A DNA stretch of 63,604 nucleotides, the filler included, from Collodictyon triciliatum (lineage: Eukaryota), in NCBI GenBank assembly GCA_043381765.1. It is 25 parts of 25 records of this genome, joined end to end, with 100 filler letters (N's around TTAATTAATTAA, not from the genome) between each part and the next. Parts side by side here need not be neighbours in the genome. Positions count along the whole stretch, not along the records: positions 20,584 to 23,050 come from JBHJMP010008829.1; 24 more parts are not named here. The stretch is one strand, 5' to 3'. The notes below the pieces were generated by a model. It worked only from the letters and a program-made list of their open reading frames with translations. It was not told where the DNA came from and searched no databases. This document shows, piece by piece, positions 13,301 through 23,200 of this stretch (its first letter is position 1; the number at the start of each line of letters is the position of its first letter). Made by a program: the position numbers and the translations under genes.

Positions 13301-14753
13301 TGGTCATCTTCTTCGAATATTGGCAACCGACTTTATCATATCAGTACTTTTTTCTCTCCTTTTTTTTTTATTCCTGTTATAGTGAGCAAGAGGAGACAAA
13401 AAATAGAGTCTACATACTTACCAACAGCTGCTGAGAGTTCATCACAAACCGAATCTGCATCGCTTCAAGAAAAAACTGGCCATACGGATGCATGTCTCAC
13501 AATCTACTTTGAACCATCAAATTTAAAAATGTGTTTCTGTTTCACTTGCCGCAGCAGTTTGGTATTTTGTTCCTGGTACTAGCAACTCAAGGTTTGATTT
13601 ACTTGGAAAGGTTAGTGGTTCAGGGCTGCGATGTTGGCGCTGTCGGTAACTCTGAGTCTGAATCGGGCTGCCAAAATGAATCGGAAAATGAAGTTGTCCA
13701 ATCAGAAGAAGTTCTTTTTCTGTGTTATGAGGAGGCACTCTTCCTGCATTCAAATCTACACTGCTTAGAAATCTTTGAGAAGGAAGGCCACGTATGATTG
13801 CATTCAGATGTGCTTGTTTCATCATGTAATACTTTTATGGGCTCGAACAAAAAAAGATTAGTATCTCGGTGTCATTCTTTACTTTCCATACAAAACGGAT
13901 TCTCTTTGTCGAATACTACTTAAACAAAATAAAAAAAAAACACTTCAAATATAAGCCTATATCTTTTTCTCATACGAATTTAATCCATGAATTCAGTTAC
14001 GAAGTGAAAGAAATGTGTGATTATCTAACGCTTCTCTTTTCACTTAGCGGACACTCGATACTGAAGAGCTCTGGGGTATCTTCTGCTCAATCAAGCGCAC
14101 GTTTCCTCAAACTTACGTCACATATTTCAATCTCAGGAAATCTGGATGGATTGTTCGGTCAGGTTTGAAAGTAGGATGAAACTCATTCACTAAATTAATT
14201 CTCAAAAAGAAAAAAAAAGGAAGCATAAACAAACAAACAAACAAACAAACAAACAAACAAACAAACAAACAAACAAACAAACAAACAAACAAACAAACAA
14301 ACAAACAAACAAACAACGAATGGATGCGTTCTTTTTTTTTGGATCAACTATATGCTTCTTTCTATATGTGATTGCGGTATGATGCCATATGCAATATCAC
14401 ACGTATCTTTCTGTCTAAGCACACTTCCTTATCCTCTGCCAGTTTGGGGCTGACTTCTCGTTGTACGAAGATGACCCAGATGCGTGCCATTCAAAGTATT
14501 ATTCAATCACATCTTCCTGGATTCCTCACATTTCACGAACGAAAGAATGGGCATTTTTATCTCTCTGAGCAATACTTTCTTTTTCTTTTCCCTTATTCCT
14601 TTTTTTTTTTCATACCTTACATTCTCTCACAAAACAAACACACAAAATACGTTTGCATATAATACACGCATTTTTTAAAAAAATAATTGGCGCGCAAAAT
14701 GAAAAGAAAAAGAAGCAATATCATACCTTCAAATACGAAAAGCAATCCGACCC

Positions 14754-15158: not shown

Positions 15159-15444
15159 TGCGGCTGCCTTTGTATTCCCCTTTGCTTTCTTTCGTGGTGG
15201 GGCGATAAATTGAAATTGATCCACTAAATTTGTGTGAAAAGTCGCAAGTAAAGAGTGGGGTATGAAAAAAGAACAAAAAAAAACAAAAAACAAACCAAAA
15301 GACCAAAAAAGACCAACAACAAAAAAACAAAAAAAAAAAACAAANNNNNNNNNNNNNNNNNNNNNNNNNNNNNNNNNNNNNNNNNNNNTTAATTAATTAA
15401 NNNNNNNNNNNNNNNNNNNNNNNNNNNNNNNNNNNNNNNNNNNN

Positions 15445-17081
15445 ATAATAATATTGGAAACGTTTACAATAACCTTGGAAAGTATCTTTTATTTGATTAT
15501 ATATGTTTATCCCTTCATTAATTTATTGTTTAATAGGAATGATAAAGCCCTTGAATACTATCACAAATCACTGGAAATTCGACTGAAAGTGTTTGGAGAA
15601 GTCCACCCTGATGTTGCGATGTCATATAATAATATTGGACTGGTTTACAATAACCTTGGAAAGTATCTTTTATTTGATTATATATGTTTATCATTCATTA
15701 ACTTACTATTTAATAGACATGACAAAGCTCTGGAATATTATCACAAATCAGTGGAGATTAAGTTGAAGGTGTTTGGAGAAATTCACCCTGATGTCGCCAC
15801 TTCATATAATAATATTGGAGCCGTTTACAATAACCTTGGAAAGTATCTTTTATTTGATTATGTTTATGTGTATCCTTTCGTTAACTTATTATTTAATAGA
15901 AATGATAAAGCCCTTGAATACTATCACAAATCACTGGAAATCCGACTGAAAGTGTTTGGAGAAGTCCACCCTGATATTGCCAATTCATATAATAATATTG
16001 GAAACGTTTACAATAACCTTGGAAAGTATCTTTTATTTGATTATGTATATATGTTTATCCTTTCATTAACTTATTATTTGACAGGCATGACAAAGCTCTG
16101 GAGTACTGCCACAAATCATTGGAAATTCAGCTGAAAGTGTTTGGAGAGAACCACCCTAATGTTGCGATGTCATATAATAACATTGGAGCCGTTTACATGA
16201 ATCTTGGAAAGTATTTTTTATTTGATTATATTTATGTTTATCATTTCATTAACTTATTATTGAATAGACATGACAAGGCTCTGGAATACTATCACAAAGA
16301 CCTTGATATTATTCTGAAAGTGTTTGGAGAAATTCACCCTGATGTCGCCACATCATATAATAATATTGGGATGGTTTACTATAACCTTGGAAAGTATGTT
16401 TTATTTGATTATGTTTATGTGTATCCTTTCATTAACTTATTATTTAATAGATATGACAAAGCTCTGGAGTACCACCACAAATCACTGGAAATTAAGCTGA
16501 AGATGTTTGGAGAAGTCCACTCTGATGTTGCTAATTCATATAATAATATTGGGATGGTTTACTGTAACCTTGGAAAGTATCTTTTATTTGATTATGTTTA
16601 TGTGTATCCTTTCGTTAACTTATTATTTAATAGGAATGATAAAGCTCTGGAGTACCATCACAAATCACTGGAAATTAAGCTGAAAGTGTTTGGAGAAATT
16701 CACCCTGATGTCGCCACGTCATATAATAATATTGGGATGGTTTACTATAACCTTGGAAAGTATCTTTTATTTGACTATCTTTATGTGTATCCTTTCGTTA
16801 ACTTTTTATTTAATAGGTATGAGAAAGCTCTGGAGTACTACCAGAAATCACTTGAAATTCAACTGAAAGTATATGGAGAGACACACCCTAGTGTTGCGGT
16901 GTCATATGGGAATATTGGTAGCCTACTTCTGAACCAGAAGAAATACGAAGAGGCTGTGGACATGTACCAAAAAGCCAACACGATATTCAAGACTGTGTAT
17001 GGTGCAGACCATCCCCATACAAAGTTTTCAGAGGAGCTAATGATGAATGCACAGAAGAATTCAAGATGTTCAATCCAGTGA
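15445..17081 (+). CDS. TPR-repeat protein (42-aa kinesin-light-chain/NPHP3-type repeats), 3' part, ending in CaaX (CSIQ)
   Basis: Seven 126-nt exons (15537-15662, 15717-15842, 15900-16025, 16085-16210, 16268-16393, 16451-16576, 16634-16759) and a terminal exon from 16817. Each repeat exon encodes about KxDKALEYYHKSLEIxLKVFGExHPDVAxSYNNIGxVYxNLG. Eight GT-AG introns of 55, 54, 57, 59, 57, 57, 57 and 57 nt. Confidence 0.92.
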
Positions 17082-20583: not shown

Positions 20584-22172
20584 ATATTGCCGTACTTGGC
20601 GAGGCAAGTGTTAACTGCTTATCATAATAACATTAAGGGGCATTTTGTAAAGAGGCTACTGCGCTTTATAAACCAAAAAGTACCTAAAGATGAGAATATT
20701 ACGGAAGCTATTAAAAAGCCAGAGTTACCAAAGTTAAAAAAAAAAAGCCATCTTCGAGAAACTCGAAATACCGAAATAATACAAAGAATGGGATATAATG
20801 CATTTGCATCATATCATTACAGCGATATTCTAAATGGTATCGAATATGTCGTCAAAGTCAATCCGAATAAGTACATACCATGTCTGATTTACATGAATCG
20901 TATTTTTGAGGACATTGGAACTAAACTGTTTCAACCAATCTCTATAAGAACTAATAATATACCATGCCATATTACTCTACATATTGCATGTTTGGTGGAT
21001 CTATTAGTATTATCTGGAAAGACATTATTGATGAAGAACATATCAGGATGCAAAGAGACCATATGGGATGAGTTCTTTGAAATGAAGAAGAGGGTCTTTC
21101 ATCAAAGAGACTAGAATTTTAAATATATGATACAAACAAACGGCTTGGCGGTGTCATTATTGTTTGAAAAGAAAGGTATTTCAAATTCAAAATCCAAATA
21201 TAACCAAAAAAAACCCAAGAATATGTACATATATAGATGAACTTTCCGAAGAGATGTTATCTTTCTTAGCGACAAAAAAAAATAGTTGTAGTGGACGCAG
21301 GCAAGTTTAATATGGTTTACATGGTGAACGAGACAGGTATGAAATTACGTTACACGGCACACCAAACAAGACATGATAGAAAATCTCTTAATAATCACAA
21401 AATACTCTTGCGCGAGAAGAAAGTAAAGCAAATGCTTCAGGGTATACATGCCAACATGTTTACAAAGTGCTATTTCTTTTGGTCAAATGAGTATTAAAGA
21501 GAATCAACTGTTTGAGACATCGAATGTATCTTTAATCGATTTAGAGACAGAACTTAGTAAACATAATTCATGCACGGTCGATTATGAAAAATTCGAAAAT
21601 ATGTACCTATGGAATCAAGATACCAGATAGAATTATCCAGAGTTTATGACCGAATAACTTTTCGAAAGATGAGAGGAAGACAGTGTGTTAATACAAAAAG
21701 AAGTGAACAGTTGTTTATGGACCAAATCAAAAAGGCATTTGGCAAGGATGTTGTACTGGCGTATGGATACTGGAGCAGAAAACCTCCAATGAAACATTTT
21801 AAGCCAGCAAATGGAAGAGGATTACGAAAAATACTATCCAAGCGTTCTGAAACAGTGAGCGTGATGAATTTAGAACCTCCAAGATGTGTTGTAACTCGAA
21901 AAAGAACTGGTTGTATGAAACCGAAATGAAATTCAAAAAAGGTGTATAGATGTATCATATGTAAAGAATGCAATCGCTCAGAAAGCAAACAAACTATATC
22001 CTTGACAAGGGAGTTTAACAGCGCTCAAAATATACACAAGAAGGTTCTTTTAATCATTCAAAATATGCGCGTACATTTTCATCTAAAAAACATAGGCAGT
22101 TGGGTCTTTCCTGGCAGCCTTCACCACTACACGGCCTCTGTGAAAAAAAAGTGGGGAGACCTTGCATACTAG
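20584..22172 (+). mobile_element. Degenerate Fanzor1 (TnpB-derived RuvC nuclease) of a transposon, 5'-truncated by contig end
   Basis: Across frames: YLARQVLTAYHNNIKGHFVKRLLRFIN; KLFQPISIRTNNIPCHI; MIQTNGLAVSLLF; RuvC-I VVVDAGK (Asp 21294-21296); AYGYWSR...GRGLRKIL; RuvC-II after a frameshift DEFRTSKMCCN (Glu 21866-21868); Zn ribbon CIICKEC; RuvC-III TREFNSAQNI (GAG 22011-22013 where Asp is expected). Stop at 21112-21114 and several frameshifts. Confidence 0.85.
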
Positions 22173-22260
22173 TGCGCTAAGTTTACCAATCGAAAGATGG
22201 TATTCTCCTTCTTGTATATGCATATGATGGAAAGGAAAGCGCAGTTCTGATCTGCCGGGC
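22095..22260 (+). ncRNA. Candidate Fanzor omegaRNA scaffold
   Basis: Lies at the 3' end of the Fanzor ORF. Hand-found complementarities: GGTCTTTCC 22103-22111/GGGGAGACC 22153-22161; TGCGCT 22173-22178/AGCGCA 22238-22243; GAAA-tetraloop hairpin TACC-A-ATC-GAAA-GAT-GGTA 22184-22202; CCTGGCAG 22110-22117/CTGCCGGG 22252-22259. Confidence 0.45.
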
Positions 22261-23200
22261 TTTTGACTGGAATACTAGGGTGGGGGCCGGGAGGTGGCGT
22301 GTTTGTCTGGAAATAGAACGACCCACCCAAGGGTTTCCCTCCAACAAACGAGATGAAGACAGAGCCTCAAGTTATGGACATTTGTGGAATATATTTATAT
22401 AATCAATTTATAGGCAAAAAATTAATATCGATGTTGCTGATATATTCTATTATGATTCAATATATGTATATTTTACATATTCTAAAGTTTTATTCATTAC
22501 ACCTATTTCTCCAAAAAAATGCTTGGCATCCCGCCCGGAGAACCTATGTCGTTAGGAATGTTTTTCGCGGTACTTGAGGCTCAGAAAACGAAGGAGAGGG
22601 AAAAAATCAAATTGGGCGTCTTGTTTTGGAAATGACAATTTCTGTTTCACTATTTTTAAAAATATATTGAAACAAAAAATTGTATAAAACGAATAGAGCC
22701 CTGGCTAAGCTGGAGTTAAATGCGCAAAGTAGTTGCTATACAATGAAAAGTTCTCATTTTAGGTTATTCACATTGAAAGTTTCTTGGGGCAGCCTTTGGG
22801 TATCCCCGATCAATTTTCCTGCGAGTGCGTTCGGGTGCGCGTTGTATTCAGTTAGAGAATAACATTTCATTGGGCGAATTGGCAGCCAGCGTCGTTCTCG
22901 CCGGCATTGATCGTGGGGGGTGCTCAAAGTCGGAACGAGGGGGCTCGCTTTACCGCGGTCACTGCAAGTCCCTGAAGCAGCGAAATACTGGCTCAGAAAA
23001 AACAAAAAACAAAAAACAAAAAACAAAAAACAAAAAACAAAAAACAAAAANNNNNNNNNNNNNNNNNNNNNNNNNNNNNNNNNNNNNNNNNNNNTTAATT
23101 AATTAANNNNNNNNNNNNNNNNNNNNNNNNNNNNNNNNNNNNNNNNNNNNTTCTTATTCTTATTCTTATTCTTATTCTTATTCTTATTCTTATTATTATT

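Follow-up and report, generated by a model that had tools for sequence, protein, structure and literature searches.

Fanzor1 proteins are eukaryotic RNA-guided RuvC endonucleases derived from TnpB. A gene copy of this family, judged from its sequence to be decayed, lies within the window, by which we mean the whole stretch of DNA that was analysed (positions 1-63604; 63,604 nucleotides). The copy is carried by an unplaced contig at 20584-23050, which has a length of 2,467 bp and a G+C content of 36.5%, and it starts at the first base of this contig. The following features were assigned by translation, alignment and comparison with sequencing runs:

20584-22172, + strand: Fanzor1 pseudogene, corresponding to approximately residues 130 to 640 of the 648-aa relative P0003 (alignment, tblastn and seven profile matches)
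20584-21237, + strand: REC/WED-like N-terminal part, mostly in one frame; profile positions 129-338, phmmer matches to PpFz1, GtFz1 and SpuFz1
21294-21296, + strand: catalytic Asp codon of RuvC-I (VVVDAGK), kept; compare VGVDPGK of P0003 and, via the profile, the Asp of IDPNK in SpuFz1
21762-21776, + strand: YGYWS, from forward-frame translation
21863-21883, + strand: RuvC-II DEFRTSK with the Glu at 21866-21868 kept, in a frame that differs from its neighbours
21887-21892, + strand: CC, start of the first zinc knuckle
21887-21898, + strand: first zinc knuckle, C-C-N-S (C-C-N-C or C-C-x-C in relatives), one Cys gone
21951-21962, + strand: second zinc knuckle CIIC, kept (motif reading and alignment to P0003)
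22005-22034, + strand: RuvC-III TREFNSAQNI, with Glu at 22011-22013 where relatives carry the catalytic Asp
22173-22240, + strand: 3′ non-coding tail of the repeated unit (coverage by contigs of run X1 to about 22240, none on 22244-23050)
22241-23050, no strand: unique flank of the insertion, without cover by the multi-copy X1 contigs
22997-23045, no strand: (A3-8[C/G])n microsatellite at the end of the unique flank

The contig edge cuts the gene at approximately residue 130, and the first ~130 codons, together with any partner transposase, lie outside the contig. In a loose end from run X3 the reading frame carries on upstream of 20584, and the 5′ truncation is therefore an edge of the assembly. 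The first-pass annotation had placed a gene at 20584-22172, and a gene copy is present there; position 20584, taken as its beginning, is a contig edge and not a biological start.

The window as a whole is a chain of 25 unplaced contigs of descending size (2,512 to 2,458 bp, the last cut by the end of the window), which are joined by N44-TTAATTAATTAA-N44 linkers. No feature should be read across the joins. Other contigs contain eukaryote-like repeat-protein genes. At 15397-17081 (+) there are open reading frames (ORFs) of TPR-type repeats, each repeat broken by a regular, hydrophobic, LLFDYVYVYPFINLLFN-like insert of ~17 residues, and these inserts resemble short introns translated in frame. 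At 36509-38527 (-) an open frame of 672 aa encodes WD40-like repeats followed by an FG-GAP-like region; in the ESM Atlas its best score was 0.87, under the threshold of 0.9, with sub-threshold FG-GAP_2 leads only.

Reading frame and active site

As a reference for a frameshift-aware alignment we used P0003, an intact relative of 648 aa that contains all motifs. Its residues 130-642 align with 20584-22131 at 296 identical columns out of 513, and the alignment places three in-frame stops (TAA at 20777, TAG at 21112 and TGA at 21927) and about eight well-placed frameshifts (near 20749, 20823, 21235, 21284, 21450, 21596, 21865 and 21917) in the window copy, next to two further doubtful frameshifts in its poorly conserved tail. 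The TAA at 20777 sits in a short excursion between two frameshifts at about 20749-20823. With three stops and about eight frameshifts, the window copy is no longer able to make a protein. The first-pass annotation had called it dead on account of a stop, frameshifts and an Asp-to-Glu change; the alignment to P0003 demonstrates this decay and adds a Cys-to-Ser change, and the earlier count of stops and frameshifts was too low.

Two of the frameshifts fall within A11 and A10 runs and are possible sequencing errors, and the contig is small and unplaced. Both points would suit a gene that is really intact and active, with breaks that are errors of sequencing or assembly in a low-quality contig. 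We regard this as very improbable, given that at least six frameshifts lie outside homopolymers, that three different stop codons are present, and that the Asp-to-Glu and Cys-to-Ser changes are found in the same copy. Moreover, an independent lake-metagenome contig (X4) aligns to 20658-20916 with 5 differences and 0 gaps and has the same frames across two frameshift sites; two of the window's frameshifts are therefore seen in independent data. An alternative genetic code as the cause of the stops was considered as well and was rejected, since all three stop codons are present and a code cannot alter frameshifts; long ORFs elsewhere in the window that are open under the standard code also speak against it.

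The motifs listed in the first-pass annotation were all recovered, in the order given there and across shifted frames (three forward frames were read), which is far beyond chance. The CC that it had reported is present and forms the start of a knuckle that reads C-C-N-C in relatives and C-C-N-S in the window copy. At RuvC-III, the window copy has Arg-Glu (22008-22013), in contrast to Arg-Asp in all relatives. Fanzor1 and its motif were defined by Bao and Jurka 2013 (PMC3627910); according to that paper, the motif follows the order D ... [TS][TS]-x-x-C4 zinc finger ... RD, and its elements are colinear in the window copy, with R-E for RD. The relatives P0003-P0005 carry the intact Fanzor1 motif. 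Of the properties of a functional nuclease, namely an open frame, an intact D-E-D triad and four zinc-binding Cys, the window copy has none.

Assignment to Fanzor1

Single pieces of the window copy were compared with domain, structure and sequence collections. Pfam assigned 0 families to seven single-frame pieces, and the best score for the Fanzor piece in the ESM Atlas was 0.78, under 0.9 and without a family lead. In phmmer searches against the PDB, a 176-aa N-terminal piece matched PpFz1 (E 2.9e-5), GtFz1 (8e-5) and SpuFz1 (0.079), and the piece before and through YGYWS matched PpFz1 (E 2.9e-5) about 400 residues further along and colinear with the N-terminal match; the four short pieces (RuvC-I, linker, RuvC-II and Zn/RuvC-III) gave no Fanzor match in this search and are placed later by the family profile described below. 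A homology search with the N-terminal piece returned four full-length or partial relatives, P0003 among them, at 33-53% identity (BLASTP). Among proteins of similar length the homology search found four fragments, 49-77% identical, and no sister protein that is nearly identical, and a word-seeded search among longer proteins with the C-terminal read-through, P0001, produced 268 candidates, none of which scored.

The family profile, built from five relatives, was run with hmmsearch over the complete six-frame translation of the window (2,472 pieces). It matches seven pieces, which are strictly colinear from profile position 129 to 593 with E values from 6e-60 to 0.013, and no other piece among the 2,472 gave a significant match. 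A tblastn search of P0003 against the window gave E values of 3.6e-69 and 2.9e-65 in two frames. Searched against the PDB at E≤1, the profile matches only SpuFz1 (3.9e-46, spanning profile positions 4-605), PpFz1 (7.2e-46) and GtFz1 (2.4e-42), and it finds no Fanzor2, TnpB or Cas12 chain. These results demonstrate the homology, and we judge from them that 20584-22172 holds a real Fanzor1 gene in a decayed state, which adds one more member to a known family. The identity proposed in the first-pass annotation is borne out both by single pieces that match PpFz1 and GtFz1 and by the profile, and the profile check of the coding pieces that it had suggested returned a significant Fanzor match.

The empty Pfam result on single pieces, together with a Cas12f1-like_TNB signal in the relatives that stays below threshold (13-23 bits against a cut-off of 26.3), might be read as a set of motifs assembled by chance, or as another TnpB-like family such as Fanzor2, TnpB or Cas12. 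Chance is refuted by E values down to 1e-69 and by the strict colinearity of the matches, and against another family stand the PDB matches at E≤1, which are the three Fanzor1 structures only; we give either possibility next to no weight. Relatives of the window copy have the precomputed Pfam annotation PF26935, for which the Pfam scan of these relatives gave no match. The family is large: an exhaustive HMMER search finds 5,943 representative clusters at E≤1e-3, of which 1,167 reach E≤1e-30.

Repeat family, viral relatives and transposon ends

Four sequencing runs were aligned to the contig at 20584-23050, one of which, X1, comes from a coded organism that may differ from the species of the window; depth of contigs in this comparison does not equal copy number. 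The comparison of sequencing runs with the whole contig returned six rows with shares of at most 0.10 each, none of them listed as RNA, and no run covers the whole contig. In X1, 229 contigs lie on 20584 to about 22240, with 12, 48, 89 and 80 of them at ≥99, 95-99, 90-95 and <90% likeness, respectively, and none on 22244-23050. One X1 copy diverges after 22191 and a close copy ends at 22219. As the copies stop sharing sequence at 22191, 22219 and about 22240, the repeated unit ends ~20-70 bp past the gene (~22190-22240). The window copy is one decayed member of a multi-copy element. A search for other family copies inside the window by tblastn and profile found none; a weak tblastn match at 13435-13485 (E 0.002) is noise, and the profile does not recover it at E≤10.

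At the site of the TAA (20777) all 17 covering X1 contigs carry C, at the site of the TGA (21927) all four carry G, and at 22013 all three carry C, which gives an Asp codon at RuvC-III; the X1 copies therefore encode an amino acid at two of the three stop positions and have the RuvC-III Asp. Several X1 contigs also show extra letters at or near the frameshift sites 21591 and 21896. The suggestion of the first-pass annotation that intact members may exist elsewhere in the genome is borne out in part by sister copies in X1 that are less damaged at three sites. Some of the X1 sister contigs have internal deletions, with joints that skip 100, 171 or 231 bases, e.g., from 21903 to 22075, and the family therefore includes deletion derivatives.

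In a viral sequence collection, 294 stretches fit the search patterns and 223 of them encode a relative; 80 viral relatives were kept, which are full-length and 38-47% identical to P0003 (tblastn). A metagenome collection yielded 311 relatives among 500 pattern matches, and the two counts are not independent, as several contigs are common to both. Many of the viral contigs have 'GVMAG' in their names, which we take to stand for giant-virus metagenome-assembled genomes. At 160 of 160 viral and metagenome loci examined, the gene is an ORF of 555-637 aa, and an internal stop was found in one of the 160. The flanks of L004 and L001 encode a 1,018-aa fusion of capping enzyme and cap methyltransferase, HSP70, a 2-cysteine adaptor domain and SNF2-type helicases (three loci were examined), and these flanking genes fit giant viruses, as judged from the encoded proteins; for two ORFs tried in the flank of L015 there was no Pfam match.

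The read-through of the window copy, with X at the breaks, has an identity of 57% with P0003 and of about 40% with the best viral copies, and P0002 (331 aa) is 55% identical to it. These closest proteins, P0002 and P0003 (55-58% identical), are absent from the viral collection, though the search patterns fit them. A FastTree phylogeny was computed from 151 rows, obtained from 299 sequences by dereplication at 75% identity, and sequences shorter than 450 aa were excluded, apart from P0002 and P0006. In this tree the window copy, P0002 and P0003 form one group (support 100), which joins L001, L003 and P0034 (support 98), and all six viral clusters fall inside a clade of 28 rows (support 91). As the tree is unrooted and most of its rows are unlabelled, it does not show in which direction a transfer would have gone. 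The first-pass annotation had likened the wording of the motifs to that of giant-virus proteins. This association is, as far as sequences tell, one of kinship: relatives are encoded on 223 of 294 viral stretches, the flanks are of giant-virus type, and the sister group includes viral sequences with support 98. Exchange of the Fanzor1 lineage between virus and host is plausible and hypothetical.

It has to be considered whether the contig is host DNA at all, or a fragment of a giant virus, an integrated viral element or a contaminant that owns the Fanzor copy. Among the labelled relatives, the nearest lie on viral contigs, the contig is just 2,467 bp long and unplaced, and Bao and Jurka (PMC3627910) reported a Fanzor1-mariner element in a Hydra contig that they judged to be of viral origin. 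Against such an origin, the window copy is heavily decayed in comparison with viral and metagenome copies, 159 of 160 of which have no internal stop in the match, and many diverged sister copies in one run are more readily explained by a repeat family than by a gene of a virus. P0002 and P0003 are also not among the viral collection. Moreover, the composition check called for in the first-pass annotation places the 3-mer make-up of the flank at 22241-23050 within the range of the window's other contigs (0.037; other contigs, 0.052 ± 0.020), with viral flanks more distant (0.059). The type of microsatellite at the end of the contig is found in 17 of the 25 contigs. We therefore consider a non-host origin unlikely and prefer to read the contig as host DNA with a dead copy of a multi-copy element.

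The architecture of the relatives was demonstrated by comparing copies in different flanks. In 11,564 of 20,258 pairs the homology ends 80-99 bp past the stop codon, and a terminal motif ending in GGTGTAA is present at 142 of the 160 loci, 105 of which also have an inverted left copy of this terminus. The left copy lies 400-499 bp before the ATG in 48 loci, which are short units without transposase, and 1300-1399 bp before it in 5 loci, a class to which L001, L003 and L004 belong, with the transposase located between terminal inverted repeat (TIR) and gene. The transposase in these three viral relatives is of DDE_3 type; in L001 and L004 it is a DDE_3 and HTH protein of 343-346 aa, encoded divergently upstream of Fanzor1. 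Both genes are bounded by inverted repeats (32 nt and perfect in L001, 33 nt and 97% in L004), and L001 and L004 are alike only over this 3.3-kb unit. Relatives of the DDE_3 transposase (~50% identical) were also observed 2-4 kb from the Fanzor gene in L035, L047 and many others, sometimes twice per locus; these viral genomes hold several mariner-type elements.

In TnpB and Fanzor systems, the guide RNA is known to come from the 3′ end of the gene and to run over the end of the element. In an alignment of 60 3′ ends of the relatives, a covarying hairpin lies inside the end of the coding region, and all four of its outer pairs change on both sides; double changes were counted in 57 cells, a value reached by 0 of 500 shuffles; the shuffles gave 16.5, and slid controls gave 24 at most. 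RNAalifold kept just four pairs in the gappy 3′ alignment, and a fourth proposed hairpin was dropped, as it is paired in 53% of cells only. The conserved 3′ end and right repeat of the relatives would fit a putative guide-RNA scaffold. A second small hairpin (GTAGG...CCTAC) is cleanly missing from L010, L020, L029, L032 and other viral loci, and L028 and L033 have extra GC-rich inserts in the 3′ region; the 3′ RNA segment of the viral copies is therefore modular.

The same searches were applied to the ends of the window copy. A tblastn search for a transposase in the window found none (best E 2.7), and the 5′ side of the element lies beyond the contig edge. A likeness of its 3′ end to the viral right TIR, proposed by eye, was rejected by a shuffle test, in which it scored no better than 1602-1806 of 2000 shuffles. 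A covariance model of the viral 3′ end gave 24 matches in the window, all at E≥1.6 and none at 22050-22240, Rfam gave 0 matches for the 3′ end of the copy, and the fold of the last 181 nt has a z score of -1.02, with 38 of 200 shuffles as good or better. Either the window lineage has different ends and a different scaffold, or its ends have decayed.

Taken together, we read the locus as a dead Fanzor1 copy of a multi-copy host DNA element, the working relatives of which ride a Tc1/mariner transposon, with a probability of about 0.92. In working relatives, Fanzor1 is the passenger of a Tc1/mariner-type (DDE_3) transposon with inverted repeats of ~32 bp; the 3′ end of the gene and the right repeat form a conserved, partly base-paired segment, the presumed guide-RNA scaffold, and sequence read through the end of the transposon would guide the nuclease. 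The window copy has lost the ability to make protein as well as one catalytic Asp and one zinc ligand. Its lineage may once have had the same mariner architecture and RNA-guided activity and may be linked to exchange between virus and host. The mariner architecture is here carried over from relatives that are ~40% identical in protein, because the window copy itself shows no TIR, transposase or guide-RNA-like structure.

Known systems and significance

The occurrence of Fanzor1 in Tc/mariner elements of viruses and eukaryotes, with and without transposase and with TA duplications, is described by Bao and Jurka (PMC3627910), who include a Phaeocystis globosa virus among the carriers and propose a spread by viruses. 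Jiang et al. 2023 reported that Fanzors cleave in an RNA-guided manner and that Fanzor1c is linked with Mariner/Tc1 (PMC10530073). The general picture, in which large DNA viruses spread mariner elements that carry Fanzor1, was already published in 2013. A dead Fanzor1 copy alone matters little, and the window copy is a fairly ordinary member of its family. It points to a host genome in which a diverged Fanzor1 family is present in multiple copies, and as the best protein relatives (55-58%) are found outside the viral collection, intact members with new guide-RNA scaffolds may exist in the host. A further-reaching scenario, which we put forward as tentative and rather doubtful, is that a Fanzor1-mariner lineage passed between giant viruses and a freshwater eukaryote, in which it later multiplied; the window copy would be a fossil of the burst, and better-preserved sisters, with the two repaired stop positions and the RuvC-III Asp, would encode an active RNA-guided nuclease, its 3′ scaffold and ends differing from those of the viral clade. 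On the viral side, giant-virus contigs contain a very large Fanzor1 clade in which nearly all copies are intact, the mariner-type ends are clear and a 3′ hairpin covaries; this clade provides a natural data set on how Fanzor1, guide RNA and the end of a DDE transposon interlock.

In bacterial TnpB (IS200/IS605, IS607) and in Fanzor2, the RuvC triad is split by a zinc ribbon and the guide RNA lies at the 3′ end of the gene. The split triad is a likeness shared with the Fanzor1 family described here, and the Cas12f1-like_TNB signal of the relatives is weak; Fanzor1 in the relatives is paired with a DDE_3 transposase and not with a Y1 or serine TnpA. As described by Bao and Jurka 2013, the elements PGv-1, PUl-1 and PUl-4 have the design of the viral relatives, which contain a mariner-type DDE transposase and Fanzor1 between TIRs and also have a Fanzor1-only unit with the same TIRs. 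PGv-1 has three genes and the viral relatives have two (transposase and Fanzor1), and in the window copy, the 5′ end of which lies outside the contig, no TIR, TA duplication or transposase is visible. Compared with the solved Fanzor1 structures (SpuFz1, 8gkh; PpFz1, 9cf0; GtFz1, 9cer), the window copy is a pseudogene minus the first ~130 codons, with Glu at RuvC-III and one zinc Cys fewer, whereas its family shares full-length, colinear homology with them and the same order of REC/WED-like N-terminus, RuvC-I Asp, RuvC-II Glu, C4 zinc finger and RuvC-III.
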